From contig CAZXNG010000002.1 in assembly GCA_964642065.1 (NCBI GenBank), forward strand, positions 1 through 25,346: DNA of 25,346 bases. The letters are read 5' to 3'. Below are positions 1,073-25,346 of this stretch, one piece after another. The DNA is from an uncultured Halobacteriales archaeon. GTDB taxonomy: Archaea > Halobacteriota > Halobacteria > Halobacteriales > Halorutilaceae. Position numbers and translations under genes: made by a program. Under the pieces are notes generated by a model that did no database searches, was not told the DNA's origin, and saw only the letters and a program-made list of their open reading frames with translations. Numbering within the stretch: position 1 is the stretch's first letter; the number at the start of each line of letters is the position of its first letter.

Positions 1073-2119
1073 TCAGTCGTCGTCCGCCTCCGCCTTCTCC
1101 GGCTCGACAGCTTCAGTGGACTCCGCGGGCGCGGGCTCCGCCTCCGCTCCGACGTCGACCGACGCACGCGCGCCACCGGAGGCCTCCACCGCCTCGGCCT
1201 CCGCGGTCTCGGGTTCCTCGAAGGTGCTCTCTATCGCCGCCCTGACGTCGAGCACGGACTCCACGTCTTCGACGACCTCGGGGTCGGTCGAGGCGATGTA
1301 GGCGTCGCCGGTGTGTCTGGCGTCGCGGTTGCCGTGGTCGCTGACGACGACGAGGGTGTCGTCCTCGTCTAGCGCGCCGTGGACGGCGTCGGTCAGCGTC
1401 GCGGCCTTCCGGTACGCCCGTCTCTGCCAGTCGGGGTCGTCGACGGCTGGCACCGTGTGGCCGACCGTGTCTAGGTACGGCAGCCAGGCGAACACGAGGT
1501 CGTGGTCTCGGTCGGCGGCCGAGAGCACCGCGCCTATCTTCTCGCTCGACTCCGCCATCAGCCACTCGTCCACCCTCTCCGGCCGTTTCTTGGGCTCGTA
1601 GACCACGCGTTCCTCGTCGACGTCGGCGTCGGCGTACAGCATCTCCGCGTGCTTGCCGTTCCAGCCGATGTCAAGGCCGACGTCGCCGTCCTCCTCGGTG
1701 ACGTAGTTCGGAACCGTGATGACGCGCGACCTTCTCCCGTCGAAGACCGTCGAGACGTCGCGCTCCGAGTACCAGTCCGGGGTCTTCTGCGACAGGCTGA
1801 ACCCCATGTTCCGTAGCTTCAACCCTATCCAGATCCGGGTGTCCGTGGGCAGAAATCGGTGGACGAGGTTCGCTCCGTACCGGAGGAACGGGCTGTCGAA
1901 CCTCGCGCCGACGTCGTCGTCGATTAGCCGGACTCCGTGTACCTCCGGCGGCTCTCCCGTGATTATCGACGGCCAGATCTCGTAGGTGTCGGGCTTCCCG
2001 AGGACGGGGTTGTCGAGCGACTCCATAGGTCTGCCATGGGGGGCGAAGGATCCCTGCATCCCGTACTCCTCGAGCAGACGTGCGTCGAGCCCGTCCCAGC
2101 CGAGCACGAAGGTCGTCAT
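1073..2119 (-). CDS. Alkaline phosphatase superfamily (NPP/phosphodiesterase-like) protein with an acidic low-complexity tail
   Basis: Metal and nucleophile motifs VLGWDGLD, PDTYEIWPSIITG, YLDTVGH, VVVSDHG and a downstream H. No signal peptide. Confidence 0.8.
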   Translation of the reverse strand: MTTFVLGWDGLDARLLEEYGMQGSFAPHGRPMESLDNPVLGKPDTYEIWPSIITGEPPEVHGVRLIDDDVGARFDSPFLRYGANLVHRFLPTDTRIWIGLKLRNMGFSLSQKTPDWYSERDVSTVFDGRRSRVITVPNYVTEEDGDVGLDIGWNGKHAEMLYADADVDEERVVYEPKKRPERVDEWLMAESSEKIGAVLSAADRDHDLVFAWLPYLDTVGHTVPAVDDPDWQRRAYRKAATLTDAVHGALDEDDTLVVVSDHGNRDARHTGDAYIASTDPEVVEDVESVLDVRAAIESTFEEPETAEAEAVEASGGARASVDVGAEAEPAPAESTEAVEPEKAEADDD

Positions 2120-2210
2120 CCGGAGTCGTGTAGGACGTCGACACCTAACTATCTTCTGGGGGTTCGTGCGGCGGACGCACGACGTAGAACCGACGTGCGC
2201 CGCGGAGTCG

Positions 2211-2657
2211 TCATCTGCGGAACTCCGTCTCGTCGATACGTGTCACGACGGAGTACTCGGACTCCGCGAGGTCGTACTCCGGCGGCTCCTCCCGGGCGTA
2301 CAGCGGCTCCAATAGCTCGCCCTCCCTGACGCCGCGGACCTTCAGGTACTCCCGGGTATCCTCCGGCTCCATCTCGGTCTCGTACAGCTTCCGAGCGAGC
2401 TCGCGGCTCAGCCACTCCTCCTCGCTGACCTCGGGGTCGAGGAGCTCGGCGGCGCGGCAGTACCTCCGGACGTACCAGTTGAGGTCGTTGAGCAAGGCGA
2501 GACCCGCGCCGATGGTCGCGGTCTCGACCTCGACGACGTTGTCAAGCGGCGTGTACTTGAACTCGTACGTCGAAAGCGCCCGCCGCGAGGTCTCGCTGGA
2601 GCGCAACTCCTCACGGAGGTCGTACTCGTCCTTCCCTATCAGCCTCACCCGGGTCAT
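2211..2657 (-). CDS. Conserved haloarchaeal hypothetical protein (DUF5804-like)
   Basis: Start moved to ATG 2657 (MTRVRLIG...), which overlaps the upstream stop as TGATG. The motifs LLNDLNWY and EWLSR.LA match a haloarchaeal family recalled as DUF5804. Confidence 0.7.
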   Translation of the reverse strand: MTRVRLIGKDEYDLREELRSSETSRRALSTYEFKYTPLDNVVEVETATIGAGLALLNDLNWYVRRYCRAAELLDPEVSEEEWLSRELARKLYETEMEPEDTREYLKVRGVREGELLEPLYAREEPPEYDLAESEYSVVTRIDETEFRR

Positions 2658-2839: not shown

Positions 2840-2977
2840 GCAGGTAAGTTCCGCTCTCACGAGTAAGAAGCTTCTGGCTGTCTCCACCGAACGGGAGTCC
2901 GGGCTCGGTCCGACCCCCGGAGCGTCCCGTCGACGTTTTAGAGAAGATACTTGGAGGACGGTACACTACCGCGAGAC

Positions 2978-3523
2978 ATGAAGAGACGGAGGGTGCTGTG
3001 GGCCGGCGCTGCCATGGCCGCGGGAGCGTCGGGATGCGTCGACCGGTTGCTCGAAGACGGAGGTGACGGGGAGGGCGACAACCGCTCGGGCGACGGCGAC
3101 GAGGATGGAGGTGACGACGGTGACGGAGGCGGCGGAGGCGACGGGGACGAGACGTCGACGGGGATACGGCTGCTGTCCAGCGAGTTCGACGTCACCGACC
3201 GCGTGCCCGGAAATGCCGAAGACATCGCCGACGTATCCTTCGACGACGCCGAAGGCTCGGTCGAGTTAGGAGGGGTGATACAGGGCGAGAACAGCTGCAG
3301 GACCGCGGAGATGGAGTCCATGGGGTACGACGACGGGGCCGACGTCCTCGAGGTACGAGTGGAGACCGCGGACCTGCCGGACGCAGAGGAGGTCTGCACC
3401 CCCGTTATCATGGAGCTGTCCTACCACGCAACCGCGGACCTCTCGGGCGGCCTCCCATCGGTAGTCTCGGTCTACCACGACGGCGACCTAGTCGTCTCCG
3501 TCGAACGACGGAGCGGAGACTGA
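2978..3523 (+). CDS. Tat-exported lipoprotein with one copy of a ~105-aa two-Cys domain
   Basis: ATG 2978 gives MKRRRVLWAGAAMAAGASGC (twin-Arg signal, lipobox ASGC20), then a G/D linker and the domain GGVIQGENSCRTA...EVCTPVIMELSY...VYHDG. Confidence 0.85.
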   Translation: MKRRRVLWAGAAMAAGASGCVDRLLEDGGDGEGDNRSGDGDEDGGDDGDGGGGGDGDETSTGIRLLSSEFDVTDRVPGNAEDIADVSFDDAEGSVELGGVIQGENSCRTAEMESMGYDDGADVLEVRVETADLPDAEEVCTPVIMELSYHATADLSGGLPSVVSVYHDGDLVVSVERRSGD

Positions 3524-3578: not shown

Positions 3579-4817
3579 ATGAGACGCAGGGAGTTCGTAT
3601 CCGCCGCGGCAGCGGCGGGCGCGGCTGGAGTGACCGGATGCATAGACGGCGGAGACGGTAACCGGACGGACGACGGCGACGACATCGACGGTAACGAGAC
3701 CGACGGAGACGGCGGGACGAGGGTGACGGACACGTCGTTCACCTCCTCCCCGAGCCGCGGAGATACCGAGGAGGCGGCTTCGTACTCGTTCGAAGACGGG
3801 GCTTTGCGCGTCTCGGGCGTCGTCGTCGGCTCGGACGCGTGCAAGACGGCCGAACTCGACTCCGCGGAGTACGACGGGGGGCGCGACGCCGTCGTCGTCG
3901 ACGTCGTCACCGTCGACGCCGAAGACGCAGGCGAAGTCTGTGCCGAGGTCCTCAAGCCGATACGGTACGAGGCCGTCGTCGACGTCGAGTACGAGGAGCA
4001 GCCTTCGGTCGTAGTCACGCACGACGGCGAAGAGGTCGACGCGACGAAGGGCACCGGCGAAGCCGGCGGAGGCGACGGGCCCGCGCTCACGGGCTCCGAG
4101 CTCGAGGTCACGAACTCCGAGTGTGGAACGGGGTCGGAGGAGGCCGAGTACACCGCGACACAGGCTATGTCGGAGGACGACGAGAGCGTAGGCGTCGTCG
4201 AAGGCACGCTGTCGGGACCGGACTCCTGCACCACCGCGGAGCTCGGATACACGAGTTACGACGCCGAGGACGACGTCCTCGTCGCCGACATCCGGACGGC
4301 GCGCACCGACGACGCTTGCCAGGAGTGCATCACAGAGGTCGACTACAGGGTCGAGGCGACGTTCGAGGGCGGCGTCGCCGAATCCGCGGAGGTGTCGCAC
4401 GACGGCGTCCGCGTCGACGGCTTAGGCGTGGGCGTCGAGGACGCGGAGTTCTCCGTCGAAGGGGTCGAGAACGCGTCGGGAGACGAGGGAACCGGAGACG
4501 CGGAGTTTCAGGAGGACGAAGGTCGCGTCGTCGTATCCGGCACTATCGTCGGCGACGACGGCTGCGCGACCGCGCGTCTCGCGGAGGCCTTCGTCGAGGA
4601 CGGGGCGCTCGTGGTCGACGTCGAGACCGTGGGAAAGGACACCCATCTCAGGTACTGCACCCAGGCTCTCGTAGCCATAGGTTACGAGGCGACGTTCACC
4701 TTCGACGGCGAGATACCCGACGAGGTCTCCCTGTCACACGACGGAACCAGCGTGATGAGCGGTGCGTACGCCTCCGAGTCCGTCACCGAAGAACCCGAGA
4801 ACGGTTCCGAGTCCTAG
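3579..4817 (+). CDS. Tat-exported lipoprotein with three tandem copies of the same two-Cys domain
   Basis: MRRREFVSAAAAAGAAGVTGC (RRxF Tat motif, lipobox VTGC21), then three units each with G-x-[VIL]-x-G-x-D-x-C-x-T-A-x-L ... C ... Y ... HDG. Confidence 0.88.
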   Translation: MRRREFVSAAAAAGAAGVTGCIDGGDGNRTDDGDDIDGNETDGDGGTRVTDTSFTSSPSRGDTEEAASYSFEDGALRVSGVVVGSDACKTAELDSAEYDGGRDAVVVDVVTVDAEDAGEVCAEVLKPIRYEAVVDVEYEEQPSVVVTHDGEEVDATKGTGEAGGGDGPALTGSELEVTNSECGTGSEEAEYTATQAMSEDDESVGVVEGTLSGPDSCTTAELGYTSYDAEDDVLVADIRTARTDDACQECITEVDYRVEATFEGGVAESAEVSHDGVRVDGLGVGVEDAEFSVEGVENASGDEGTGDAEFQEDEGRVVVSGTIVGDDGCATARLAEAFVEDGALVVDVETVGKDTHLRYCTQALVAIGYEATFTFDGEIPDEVSLSHDGTSVMSGAYASESVTEEPENGSES

Positions 4818-5835: not shown

Positions 5836-5908
5836 GCCGTCGTAGCTCAGCTGGTAGAGCGAGTCCTTCGTAAGGACTAGGCCGTGGGTTCAAATCCCAC
5901 CGACGGCT
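5836..5908 (+). tRNA. tRNA-Thr (anticodon CGT), no intron, CCA not encoded
   Basis: Cloverleaf: acceptor GCCGTCG/CGACGGC, D stem GCTC/GAGC, anticodon stem AGTCC/GGACT with loop TTCGTAA, T stem GTGGG/CCCAC with loop TTCAAAT. Confidence 0.97.
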
Positions 5909-5913
5909 AGCCT

Positions 5914-5919
5914 AAAAAA
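5914..5919 (-). terminator. Possible oligo-T terminator for the 447-aa repeat-protein gene
   Basis: T6 on the minus strand about 70 nt after the stop at 5991, just before the transcript would run antisense into tRNA-Thr. Confidence 0.4.
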
Positions 5920-5990: not shown

Positions 5991-7334
5991 TCACTCCCCG
6001 GGGTATCTCTCCTCCATCCCCTCGGTTACGTCTCTGGCTACCTGTTCGGCGATCAGTCTCCTGACTGCGGTGTCGAGGGTGTTGTCCACCAGTCGTTCGC
6101 TCGCGTCCGCCTCCACGAGGCGTTCGCTGGTCCTCTCGAGCGTCTCGTCCACGAGCGCGTCGCTCTGACCTTCCTCGATAGCTACTTCGGCGGCTTCCTC
6201 GACCAGTGCTTCTACGATGCGTTCGCTGGCGTTCGCCCTCACTATCTCTCCGGTGGCGGCCGTCAGGGTGTCCTCAACGAGGGCGTCGCTCTGACCTTCC
6301 TCGACCATCACGTCTCCGGCGTCGGAGACGAGGGCCTGGACGAGCGCGAGACTGGCTTGCTCTTGCTCTATCTCGCGGGTGATCGCTTCGAGGGTGTCCT
6401 GAAGTAGTCTGTCGCTCTCGCCTGCGTCTATCATGTCCTGGATAGCGACGTCTACTATGTCTGTAGCCAGGCTCTCGGCCTCGCCTTCGTCGACGAGTCT
6501 GTCGGCGCTGATGTCGAGGACTTCTTCGACGAGTTCGTCGCTGTAGCCCTGTTCGATGATGGTCTCGATGAGCTTGTTCCCTACGTCTTCGACTACCAGA
6601 TCCGATCTCCGCCCCAGTAGCTTGTGGGCGACCTTCTTGACCACCGTACGTACGGGACCCATCCTCCGTACGCCGGGCAGGTGGTCGAGCACGATGTCTG
6701 CGACGTCGAGCACGAGTTGGTCGCTCTCGGGACCCTGAAGTCTGTGTACTATCGCGTCGCCGACGTCCCACATGATATCCTCGGCGTACTCCTCGTCTTC
6801 CTTGAGCACGTGGACCGTGATGACGTCGACGCTGTCTCTGAGGAGGGCCTCGGACTCGCCGCTCTCCCGGACGCGGGTCTTGATGACGTCGCCGACGTCT
6901 TCGACTATCTCCTCTTCGAGGTCGGCGTCGGACACCACGCGGTATATCACATCGGCGCCTTCGTCGACCAGCTGTTCCTCGAGCTCTGCGTCTTCGACGC
7001 GGTGGTTGAGGACGTCGATAGTCTCCTCTACGACGTCTTCCTGGAGGTCGTGTTCGCGGCTTACCTCGAGGATGACGCGGGCGCCCTCCTCCACGAGCTG
7101 GTTCTGAAGTCCCGACTCCTGGATCCGGTTCTGGATCACGGCTACCGCGTCGCGTACGACGTCGTCGCTCAACCCCTCTTTACGAGTGGTCTCGCTGACC
7201 ACCTCCACGGTGTCGAACACCATGGTGTCCGCCTGTTCTTCGTCCAGGTTCTCGCTTATCTCCTCCTTGAGCGCCTCGGCCGCTTCGTCGATGTCGTCTT
7301 CCGAGATGGTTATCGAGTGCTCCGTCGAGGACAT
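5991..7334 (-). CDS. Hypothetical acidic all-alpha protein with ~18 copies of a 21-aa repeat and a central basic segment
   Basis: 447-aa ORF with typical halophile acidity and a TA-rich box 21-30 nt upstream. The repeat register S/Q/E/A-[DEN]-x-[LVI]-[VL]-x-[DE] recurs about every 21 aa. I recognise no family. Confidence 0.85.
   Translation of the reverse strand: MSSTEHSITISEDDIDEAAEALKEEISENLDEEQADTMVFDTVEVVSETTRKEGLSDDVVRDAVAVIQNRIQESGLQNQLVEEGARVILEVSREHDLQEDVVEETIDVLNHRVEDAELEEQLVDEGADVIYRVVSDADLEEEIVEDVGDVIKTRVRESGESEALLRDSVDVITVHVLKEDEEYAEDIMWDVGDAIVHRLQGPESDQLVLDVADIVLDHLPGVRRMGPVRTVVKKVAHKLLGRRSDLVVEDVGNKLIETIIEQGYSDELVEEVLDISADRLVDEGEAESLATDIVDVAIQDMIDAGESDRLLQDTLEAITREIEQEQASLALVQALVSDAGDVMVEEGQSDALVEDTLTAATGEIVRANASERIVEALVEEAAEVAIEEGQSDALVDETLERTSERLVEADASERLVDNTLDTAVRRLIAEQVARDVTEGMEERYPGE
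6157..6304. repeat. 22-bp exact direct repeat, 126 bp apart (42-codon super-repeat)
   Basis: GCGTCGCTCTGACCTTCCTCGA occurs at 6157-6178 and 6283-6304. Each copy lies within the codons for EEGQSDA. Confidence 0.9.
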
Positions 7335-7614
7335 GAACGCAGTTTCGCATCATCAACTAATAACTCTTGGGAGGGTGGGGTTTGCCGTCTCCGGGTAGAA
7401 GGAGGTGATGGAGTGCGAACTCCACCGGCGGCTAAGGACTGTTTTCCACGTCTCCTTTTAAGTGGTCGCACGAGATGGTTCGGTAAATCCGGACGATGTA
7501 ACACGGTCACAGATTCCTTCGACGGGAAAGGTATATCGGCGCCCGCCCCCTAGGGCGTTCGAACGTGGAACCTTACACCCAAACCCCGATGCCGTCGGCC
7601 TTCGGGTTCGAGCT

Positions 7615-15258: not shown

Positions 15259-15333
15259 TGGGCCCAGTCGGATTTGAACCGACGACCACTCGGTTATGAG
15301 CCGAGCGCTCTAACCAGTCTGAGCTATGGGCCC
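15259..15333 (-). tRNA. tRNA-Ile2 (anticodon CAT, agmatidine-modified, reads AUA)
   Basis: Reverse complement: GGGCCCA TA GCTC AGACTGGTTA GAGC G CTCGG CTCATAA CCGAG TGGTC GTCGG TTCAAAT CCGAC TGGGCCC A. The GGGCCC acceptor and CTCGG-CTCATAA-CCG arm match haloarchaeal tRNA-Ile2 rather than initiator or elongator Met. Confidence 0.9.
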
Positions 15334-24476: not shown

Positions 24477-24691
24477 GCTCCCTCCTCCTTCTCCATCTCG
24501 CGCTCGGTCTGGATGGTCTTGATGCGCGCGATGGTGCGCTTCAGCTCCTTCAGCCGGCCGGGGTTGTCGGGCGCACCACCCGCCGCCTGCACCGAGGTCT
24601 CGGCGAGCAGCTCCTGCTCGAGGTCCTCGAGCTCCTGCTCTATCTCGGCGTCGCTGAGCTCGCGTATCTCGTCGGCGCGGAGTATCGCCAT
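24473..24691 (-). CDS. rpl29: 50S ribosomal protein uL29
   Basis: MAILRADEIRELS, GGAPDNPGRLKELKRTIARIKTI. Confidence 0.97.
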   Translation of the reverse strand: MAILRADEIRELSDAEIEQELEDLEQELLAETSVQAAGGAPDNPGRLKELKRTIARIKTIQTEREMEKEEGA

Positions 24692-25346
24692 CAGCTACCA
24701 CCTCCGAAGCCGAGCTCCTCGGCGATGCGCTCCACCATCTCCTCGGTCTTGAGGTTGGCTTTCACGCCGGCCTCCTTCGCGAGGCTCTGGAGGTCGCGGT
24801 ACGACAGCTCCTCCAGCTCCTCCACCGAGGTAGGGGCGTCGTCGAGGGCGTCGGCCTCCTCCTCGGCCTCTTCTTCTGCCTCCGGTTCGGCTTCCTCCTC
24901 TGCTTCTTCCGCTGCTTCGGCCTCCGGCTCCTCGGCGGCCTCTTCCTCGTCCTCCACGGCTTCGGGTTCGGCCTCCTCTTCGGCCTCGTCCGTCTCCTCG
25001 TCTTCCTCGGCCCCGGGTTCCGGCTCGGGCTCCTCCTCGTCCTCTCCCGGGAGCTCGTCGAGGGGGCTGCCCTCCGGCGTCTCGTCGGGTGCGCCCTCGA
25101 CGGCGTCGGGCTCCTCGACTATCTCCTCGATGTCGCCGGCGCCCGCGGCCTCGACCTGTACGTCGGTCTGGGCGGCGTCGGGCACCATGTCCTCGGTGTC
25201 GGCGTCTACTGCGACATCGAACTTGTCGGGGAGCTCGGCGTCCGGCGGGATGATCCTCACCTGGACGCCGATGGTTCCGAGCTTCATGACGGCGGTGCCG
25301 TAGCCCTTCTGGACTATGCTCTCGGCGGGTTCGCCGCAGTGCTTGA
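24691..25346 (-). CDS. rps3: 30S ribosomal protein uS3, 3' part (starts outside the window) with acidic tail and a terminal SAP/HeH-like domain
   Basis: The frame is open to the window edge: KHCGEPAESIVQKGYGTAVMKLGTIGVQVRIIPP, the archaeal S3 C-terminal motif. An E/A/P-rich tail and ELSYRDLQSLAKEAGVKANLKTEEMVERI follow. Confidence 0.96.
   Translation of the reverse strand, partial: KHCGEPAESIVQKGYGTAVMKLGTIGVQVRIIPPDAELPDKFDVAVDADTEDMVPDAAQTDVQVEAAGAGDIEEIVEEPDAVEGAPDETPEGSPLDELPGEDEEEPEPEPGAEEDEETDEAEEEAEPEAVEDEEEAAEEPEAEAAEEAEEEAEPEAEEEAEEEADALDDAPTSVEELEELSYRDLQSLAKEAGVKANLKTEEMVERIAEELGFGGGS

Follow-up and report, generated by a model that had tools for sequence, protein, structure and literature searches.

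What keeps the two halves of a repeat protein at the same length, when an array of tandem repeats is normally free to grow or shrink on one side of a landmark or the other? The question is raised by a gene on the minus strand of a 25,346-nucleotide (nt) contig from an uncultured Halobacteriales archaeon, which was analyzed as a whole and is called the window below. This chromosome fragment is haloarchaeal in appearance, with a GC content of ~0.65, a GC content at third codon positions (GC3) of ~0.8-0.9 and acidic predicted proteins. In the product of the gene, a protein of 447 amino acids (aa), a first-pass annotation made from the letters alone had read nine 21-aa units, a basic hinge and nine further units. 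This architecture is borne out (nine units, a basic segment, nine units), and the equality of its arms recurs among its relatives. We tentatively propose that equality is kept because the arms would pair with each other.

Two Arms of Distinct Repeat Units

All 18 unit starts listed in the first-pass annotation (residues 35 to 204 and 244 to 412) were recovered by a 21-column repeat hidden Markov model (HMM), at 13-19 bits each. Compared with 500 shuffled versions, the protein is most similar to itself at lag 42 (z = 11.5); lag 21 comes next (z = 10.5), ahead of 63 and 84. The same is seen in each arm taken alone, and lags 11 and 22 fall outside the top ten. The regular 21-aa spacing stands for most units, with two exceptions (161-183 and 184-203, of 23 and 20 aa), and the arms, said to be equal at ~189 aa, measure 190 and 189 aa (table 1). 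At the DNA level the array goes undetected by Tandem Repeats Finder, and its 42-aa doublets are just ~55-63% identical in nucleotides.

The two arms are distinct unit types with reciprocal patterns at positions 9 and 12. The N-type consensus, [AS]-D-x-[LIV]-V-x-D-V-[AG]-D-x-[IV]..., has a small position 9 and a large position 12, whereas the C-type consensus, S-D-x-L-V-[DE]-[DE]-T-L-[DE]-x-A-x-x-R-L-V-E-E-G, has a large position 9, a small position 12 and a hydrophobic position 17. Position 9 is A/G in 68% of N-type units versus L/V in 74% of C-type units, and position 12 is I/V in 93% of the former versus A/G/S/T in ~71% of the latter, while position 17 is polar in N-type units. Within each arm the units alternate between A and B forms with a 42-aa super-period. 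Their net charge runs from -1 to -6, with few basic residues and with the last unit, C9, at net 0; their hydrophobic moments (muH) are 0.23-0.53.

Between the arms the first-pass annotation had placed a basic hinge, which stands, and a break in the array, which does not: after an LPGVRRMGP loop, residues 225-243 are one unit-length helix of inverted charge. The hinge is thus a charge-inverted repeat unit, like the others in length and hydrophobic pattern. Its 25 residues (LPGVRRMGPVRTVVKKVAHKLLGRR) carry a net charge of +8 versus -95 for the remainder of the protein, the net charge of the hinge unit is +5 to +8 versus 0 to -6 elsewhere, and its muH is 0.33. Three of the eight Lys residues of the protein lie in the basic hinge helix. 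The array is closed at both ends by caps. The N-cap opens with a few residues that are alternately hydrophobic (HSITIS; YxIxF in relatives) and continues as an acidic helix (DIDEAAEALKEEISENL); a C-cap, VARDVTEGMEERYPGE in the window protein, is found in most members of the family described below and is missing from the 177-180-aa P0005-type forms.

Overall the protein holds 123 D+E residues (27.5%) versus 36 K+R, for a net charge of about -87. The reading of a soluble protein free of Cys also holds: there are 0 Cys in 447 aa, the highest Kyte-Doolittle 19-residue window reaches 1.12, which leaves no transmembrane segment, and the first 30 residues have a net charge of -9, with no signal peptide. 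Only four Pro residues occur (202, 220, 227 and 445), none at a unit boundary. The protein is an all-alpha tandem repeat of 21-residue helix-plus-turn units, often duplicated as 42-residue two-helix doublets. One helix per 21-mer, as the amphipathic units had implied, is seen in the secondary structure of both AlphaFold2 (AF2) runs, whose low-confidence models show helices of ~17 residues per unit and turns of 3-5 residues at G-x-S/A-D boundaries. For the single window sequence the predicted local distance difference test (pLDDT) was 52 and the predicted template modeling score (pTM) 0.33; for a homolog with three units per arm, run with a 13-sequence alignment, they were 43 and 0.24.

A Small Family Confined to Halobacteria

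The first-pass annotation recognized no named family, and neither did our searches. Pfam, NCBIfam, PHROGs and PADLOC gave no above-threshold match, a PDB search with the window protein came back empty, and the sub-threshold matches of the protein and its relatives (MCM5_C, YueH, RecX, ATP-cone, Nab2, Cas10 and DUF445) were taken as noise. Scanned exhaustively with HMMER, 1.84 billion cluster representatives gave 10 matches, one of them an unrelated repeat protein, and a profile built from short forms gave 15. Four more long forms came from genome scans, queried with a 5-sequence alignment, and from metagenome scans; an ortholog was read out of its contig, and BLAST against the fetched loci added one paralog. 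In total, ~25 relatives were found among ~15 billion proteins. All are from Halobacteria, the named sources being without exception Halorientalis species or uncultured Halobacteria metagenome-assembled genomes (MAGs), and all are annotated as 'hypothetical protein'. A search of the literature turned up no account of a family like it. We are thus dealing with a very small, new, unannotated family confined to Halobacteria. It falls within a broad and familiar class, the alpha-helical tandem-repeat proteins, and is unusual in its matched-arm rule. P0007 (476 aa) is an unrelated protein of ~11 near-identical 21-aa units (SPDDSFLDEIINSAILQVVNE; lag-21 z = 27.8), with no hinge and a different C-terminal domain.

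The family proteins span 155-465 aa and follow one plan: an N-cap, n N-type units, a Pro/Gly loop (mostly LP) with a basic helix, n C-type units and a C-cap. The hinge core of the window protein aligns with all members, at 37-72% identity over a 107-aa core. The hinge is present in every family module, with G in place of the P of LP in two short forms.

Arm Matching across the Family

Units per arm were counted by eye, by HMM and by length. The smallest form, 2+2, is P0011 from Logan/ENA assemblies. A 3+3 arrangement is found in the forms from Halorientalis spp., in P0004 and in both modules of P0006 (the sources of P0004 and P0006 are unrecorded), and 4+4 in both modules of P0003, from a Halobacteria MAG (L014). 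Three proteins are 5+5, namely P0001 (MAG Ods02), P0002 (a Logan assembly) and the L015 protein (a JGI metagenome); two are 7+7, the L012 protein (a Halobacteriales MAG) and the product of the upstream gene at L001 (MAG Ods02). The L013 protein (MAG Ods01) is 8+8, and 9+9 is shared by the window protein and its ortholog in MAG Ods02 (L010). With n = 9, the window protein is the longest known form. Across 24 modules, the residues before and after the hinge correlate with r = 0.99 and a slope of 0.997. The weight that the first-pass annotation gave to equal arms is reinforced, every intact relative having them, in seven size classes, and arm symmetry is a family rule for n from 2 to 9.

If seven distinct arm sizes were paired at random, all would match with a probability of 1/5040, by simple arithmetic. 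Nor do the matches go back to one inherited event, because a neighbor-joining tree of the conserved core needs ~6 changes of n and the 8+8 form expanded other units than the 7+7 / 9+9 clade. The same is told by the indels, whose positions were taken from global alignment and are numbered on the window protein. From each arm of the 7+7 forms exactly 42 aa are missing (residues 114-155 and 318-359), and from each arm of the 5+5 forms exactly 84 aa (67-108 plus 114-155, and 301-384), with the gaps at roughly mirrored distances from the hinge. The N-arm gap of the 7+7 forms falls within the expanded N3-N6 zone, whereas the 5+5 gap at 67-108 starts 10 residues earlier, in N2, and that at 301-384 starts 6 residues before the expanded C4-C7 zone. 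If N_i is set against C_(n+1-i), the duplicated blocks N3-N6 and C4-C7 lie opposite each other. The duplications took place within arms (N3~N5, C4~C6, C5~C7), and therefore the arms grew by separate events yet ended equal. We know of no mutational mechanism that adds equal blocks on either side of a center, and the equality is most simply explained by selection acting on the geometry that results.

The two-module proteins P0003 and P0006 are symmetric inside each module, and the modules behave as autonomous units. The only exceptions to the rule, P0009 and P0020 (see below), look damaged; P0009 has an out-of-character basic tail at its end and comes from a 1.1-kb contig. In MAG Ods02 a 361-aa 7+7 gene (L001, 417-1502, plus strand) lies directly upstream of a 277-aa 5+5 gene (1647-2480, plus strand), and with the 9+9 ortholog on another contig the genome holds a graded 5/7/9 series.

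A Proposed Reason for Equal Arms

In this context, we put forward, with a probability of roughly 0.4, that the family members are length-graded rods in which the two arms are paired and a basic helix serves in docking, a function that we infer. The arms would stay equal since they pair physically, either by the C-arm folding back along the N-arm about the hinge or by two chains pairing antiparallel about it. Such pairing would explain at once why the arms are equal, why the indels are mirrored, why each arm has its own unit type and why each module of the two-module proteins is symmetric. In the fold-back version, which we prefer, the protein would be a helical rod of two layers, with n determining its length; the conserved termini would meet at one end, and the sole basic surface would lie at the other. 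The rod might act as a spacer or adaptor graded in length, this being the weakest step of the proposal: the basic helix could dock on an anionic partner, such as a membrane surface or a nucleic acid, and the capped termini could engage a second partner. Across the family the basic center, the hinge-proximal units and both caps are conserved and the middle of each arm varies in sequence and in unit number, as expected of a spacer or adaptor that binds by its ends and has its length tuned. A more explicit version is a fold-back helical ladder, in which each rung would hold one N-arm and one C-arm helix, growth would proceed only by matched units, and graded sets, such as the 5, 7 and 9 rungs of MAG Ods02, would serve as spacers or rulers that hold a basic tip, for membrane or nucleic-acid docking, at a set distance from the joined termini. 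In that full detail we hold the proposal to be unlikely.

Several points weigh against arm pairing. The case for it comes from comparative architecture, both AF2 models being of too low confidence to read a topology. A test for compensation of side-chain volume between the putatively paired units gave no signal, although the test was crude and did not discriminate. The A/B alternation and its 42-aa super-period are the signature of an ordinary two-layer solenoid, which would bury its core without the other arm, and the low-confidence window model resembled continuous solenoids in Foldseek (designed, armadillo, importin-alpha and designed helical repeat (DHR) folds, all at a template modeling score of 0.41 or below); with the low-confidence model of the 3+3 homolog, Foldseek found nothing significant. 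In P0020 a 9-aa deletion affects the N-arm alone, in a sequence that looks damaged, and the family sample is small and phylogenetically clumped. No gene neighbor shared across genera was found at the window, L001 and L002-L015, so that no functional partner can be named. Finally, the cytoplasm of this organism is assumed to hold multi-molar KCl, in which electrostatic docking by a basic helix is not self-evident.

The alternative that fares best is a continuous alpha-solenoid rod, in which all 21 helices would be stacked in order, the arms would never touch, and equality would be functional, placing the basic helix at the midpoint, for instance for central attachment. The alternation inside each arm and the Foldseek matches just mentioned speak for it, as do growth in 42-aa doublets and the PDB sequence matches of the family profile, which are all designed repeat proteins; the best of them is 5cwb, a helical repeat protein designed de novo (E = 7e-4, profile positions 12-152). 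Nevertheless, a solenoid of this kind offers no folding reason for strict equality or for mirror-placed indels; N-type and C-type units are segregated by arm instead of alternating throughout; n is both odd and even, so a two-helix unit is not obligatory; and the Foldseek support comes from a model of pLDDT 52. We consider a continuous rod rather doubtful and, tentatively, favor arm pairing over it.

Less probable again, the protein might be a hyper-acidic polyanion that folds conditionally, its amphipathic helices forming only when salt is high or a partner is bound; it could then buffer cations, act as a chaperone of basic proteins, mimic nucleic acids or protect against stress. The acidic composition would suit such a role, as would the low confidence of both AF2 runs despite a clear helix propensity and the lack of a conserved genomic partner. 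High acidity is, however, normal for the proteins of salt-in haloarchaea. Furthermore, the gene is under strong purifying selection, with a ratio of nonsynonymous to synonymous substitution rates (dN/dS) of 0.09, its core hydrophobic positions are conserved one by one, its N-type and C-type units are distinct, and exact arm matching would be unexpected of a mere polyanion. Altogether this makes the polyanion improbable.

If the equality of the arms is real, two arms that change together or not at all, in seven size classes and through several independent events, are a natural case of coupled repeat-number evolution. The family could then be used to study the growth of repeat proteins under geometric constraint, and in protein design as a highly soluble rod that is adapted to salt and can be tuned in length. 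A gene family of Halobacteria that had gone unannotated is also brought to notice, and its basic center and conserved termini provide two handles for finding partners. If the equality is a sampling accident, the window protein is simply another orphan acidic helical-repeat protein.

Coding Status and Genomic Context

The coordinates of the gene and its parts are collected in table 1. The repeat gene is a genuine protein-coding gene that stands alone, and its product is cytoplasmic. Its dN/dS of 0.09, its homologs and its codon bias rule out the reading of the open reading frame as not a gene. Its GC3 of 0.79 is similar to that of the neighboring genes. The ortholog, on contig L010 of the MAG 'Euryarchaeota archaeon Ods02', is also 447 aa long and aligns without gaps, at 88% amino acid and 84% nucleotide identity (dS 0.75, dN 0.069). 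The central 130 residues are nearly invariant between the two proteins, and the hinge differs by one substitution in 25 residues. The exact window protein was not found in the 15-billion-protein collection, in which other proteins of the same contig are present; no recorded gene has this product, and the gene was probably uncalled or mis-called in the source annotation. No second family member was found in the window.

Table 1. Features of the repeat gene and its immediate flanks (window coordinates; residues of the 447-aa protein).
Feature	Position	Strand	Residues	Basis or remark
TATA-box-like hexamer TTATTA	7358..7363	-		24-29 nt upstream of the ATG; read from the sequence
Coding sequence of the 447-aa repeat protein	5991..7334	-		Stop codon 5991-5993; list of open reading frames
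N-cap	7233..7334	-	1-34	Conserved in family alignments; AF2 helix at 12-26
N-arm, nine N-type 21-aa helix-turn units	6663..7232	-	35-224	Repeat HMM, unit profiles, one helix per unit
N-arm expanded zone, units N3-N6, two 42-aa doublets	6855..7106	-	77-160	Identity matrix; N3~N5 11/21 identical
Hinge	6606..6680	-	219-243	Pro/Gly loop and unit-length amphipathic helix of inverted charge
C-arm, nine C-type 21-aa units	6039..6605	-	244-432	Repeat HMM, unit profiles
C-arm expanded zone, units C4-C7	6165..6416	-	307-390	C4~C6 and C5~C7 each 11/21 identical
22-nt repeat, first copy (TCGAGGAAGGTCAGAGCGACGC)	6283..6304	-		Encodes [IV]EEGQSDA
22-nt repeat, second copy	6157..6178	-		
C-cap	5994..6038	-	433-447	Terminal E-[YF]-P-[AG] motif; family alignments
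T6 run	5914..5919	-		72-77 nt past the stop codon; likely terminator (putative role); sequence

The spacing of the TTATTA hexamer to the ATG suits a leaderless haloarchaeal transcript. Together with the T6 run, which just precedes a convergent tRNA-Thr gene, it would fit a leaderless, monocistronic haloarchaeal gene. On the side of this tRNA gene the neighborhood also includes a homolog of M29-type aminopeptidases, and on the other side lies a divergent metallophosphoesterase gene. The tRNA-Thr (CGT) occupies 5836-5908 on the plus strand, ~80 nt downstream of the repeat gene. Upstream, the similarity between window positions 7335-7461 and the corresponding region of L010 ends 12 nt before the ATG, and the divergent metallophosphoesterase gene of the window has as its counterpart in L010 a co-oriented gene for a 604-aa protein. 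The loss of upstream similarity and the different neighbors indicate that the gene moved, or that its surroundings were rearranged, between these close relatives.

The first-pass annotation had also pointed to an exact 22-nt DNA repeat in the C-arm as a mark of recent expansion. The repeat is present, at nt 1031 and 1157 of the coding sequence, 126 nt apart, and the 42-aa doublets that hold it are ~62% identical in DNA. The inference of recency fails: both copies are identical in the ortholog (L010, 3088-3109 and 3214-3235) at dS = 0.75, with third codon positions elsewhere ~65% conserved between the two genes, and the ortholog is already 9+9. The 9+9 state thus predates the split from the Ods02 ortholog. 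Gene conversion or a constraint at the nucleotide level are possible explanations for the conserved 22-mer.

Among the relatives, two loci are kept within Halorientalis, with the family gene (X) in the orders eRF1 / X / ParA-like and crtB / DUF7553 / X / X. This conservation says little because the whole region is syntenic in the genus. At L003, L004, L005 and L007, one or two 3+3 genes follow one or two DUF7553 genes, beside crtB and genes for bacterioruberin (an amine-oxidase-type desaturase, UbiA and Caroten_synth). A third type of Halorientalis paralog has eRF1 on one side and a gene for a ParA/MinD-like ATPase on the other (L002, L009). Both arrangements are restricted to the genus.

Elsewhere in the window, two adjacent plus-strand genes (2951-3523 and 3579-4817) encode very acidic proteins with twin-arginine/lipobox-like N-termini (e.g., MRRREFVSAAAAAGAAGVTGC), neither with a Pfam match, and the 412-aa protein of this pair apparently holds ~4 internal Cys-bearing repeats of ~95 aa. 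A tRNA-Met gene is found at 15259-15333 (minus strand). The gene at 24691-25287 (minus strand), which ends a minus-strand gene run, encodes an N-terminal stretch that may be of ribosomal-protein-S3 type, followed by an extremely acidic tail (39% D+E) of EEAEPEA-like low-complexity repeats.

Comparison with Known Systems

The first-pass annotation had named DUF445 as an example of a known family a confident match to which would refute its reading. The window protein gives no match to it at E <= 10, and its relatives give sub-threshold matches only. These recur in divergent members over the helical region of DUF445 (PF04286; E. coli YjiN, B. subtilis YheB) and would suit a soluble family distantly related to the middle, helical part of these YjiN/YheB-type membrane proteins: the L013 protein reaches E = 1.2e-5 and 25.9 bits (profile positions 58-280), the L012 protein 19.3 bits, and P0001, P0005 and P0016 ~16.5 bits each, and in BLASTP the L013 protein aligns with E. 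coli YjiN over its hinge region at E = 8e-4. However, none of the profile scores, 16-26 bits among the relatives, reaches the 33.8 bits that Pfam requires, and when the family profile was aligned with the single YjiN sequence in hhalign, the probability came to 0.5%. A 21-aa periodicity is missing from YjiN, whose terminal transmembrane helices and signature motifs are in turn absent from our family, the hydropathy of the window protein leaving no room for such ends. The unrelated 21-aa-repeat protein P0007 scores equally well (27.7 bits), suggesting a periodic or compositional artifact. The family is not a demonstrable member of DUF445, and a remote relationship to it is highly improbable.

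The first-pass annotation had also compared the 21-mers with the lipid-binding repeats of exchangeable apolipoproteins (the 11/22-mers of ApoA-I, ApoA-IV and ApoE). Tandem amphipathic helices and the lack of Cys are indeed held in common, but the window protein has G/S-D turns instead of Pro and strongly acidic polar faces without class-A charges, and the analogy fails. Least probable of all is a lipid- or membrane-surface coat of exchangeable apolipoprotein, phasin or perilipin type: amphipathic units, a hinge helix that a HeliQuest-type discriminant scores as a possible lipid binder (D = 2.0-2.8, mainly charge-driven) and two Halorientalis paralogs beside the bacterioruberin cluster are set against a period of 21 and not 11 or 22, no Pro at any unit boundary, acidic units without interfacial basic residues, the anionic nature of haloarchaeal membranes, no Pfam apolipoprotein or phasin match for the window protein (E <= 10 for apolipoprotein), and an adjacency to carotenoid genes that is seen in one genus only, where the surrounding synteny is conserved anyway.

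The DHRs, represented by 5cwb, are idealized E/V/I-rich arrays of short amphipathic helices with 3-4-residue G/S/D turns and terminal caps, and in all of this they resemble the window protein. Unlike them, the latter is natural, its unit of 21 aa (42-aa doublet) is shorter than a DHR unit, and the alignment is gapped; moreover, its arms are matched in length, each with its own unit type, and a unit of inverted charge lies between them. Composition or convergence, rather than homology, probably accounts for the similarity. With HEAT and armadillo solenoids (importin-alpha, designed armadillo proteins) the family shares a two-helix super-period of ~42 aa, an all-alpha composition and a variable repeat number. 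No HEAT or ARM Pfam match was found in the window protein, the best among 13 members being HEAT_2 in one of them (E = 0.086), and to our knowledge no rule in known solenoids equalizes the repeats on either side of a central element.

The fold-back arms of SMC, Rad50 and MukB offer a likeness in architecture only. Unlike these proteins, the window protein has no ABC ATPase head (ATPase motifs and ABC-type Pfam matches were searched for in it and none was found), no sequence similarity to them and no continuous coiled coil, its arms being stacked short helices broken every 21 residues. The likeness is thus an analogy, with a fold-back that in our family we infer; what the two would share is a pair of matched halves around a hinge, ends that are expected to meet, and changes in length that are matched between the halves.

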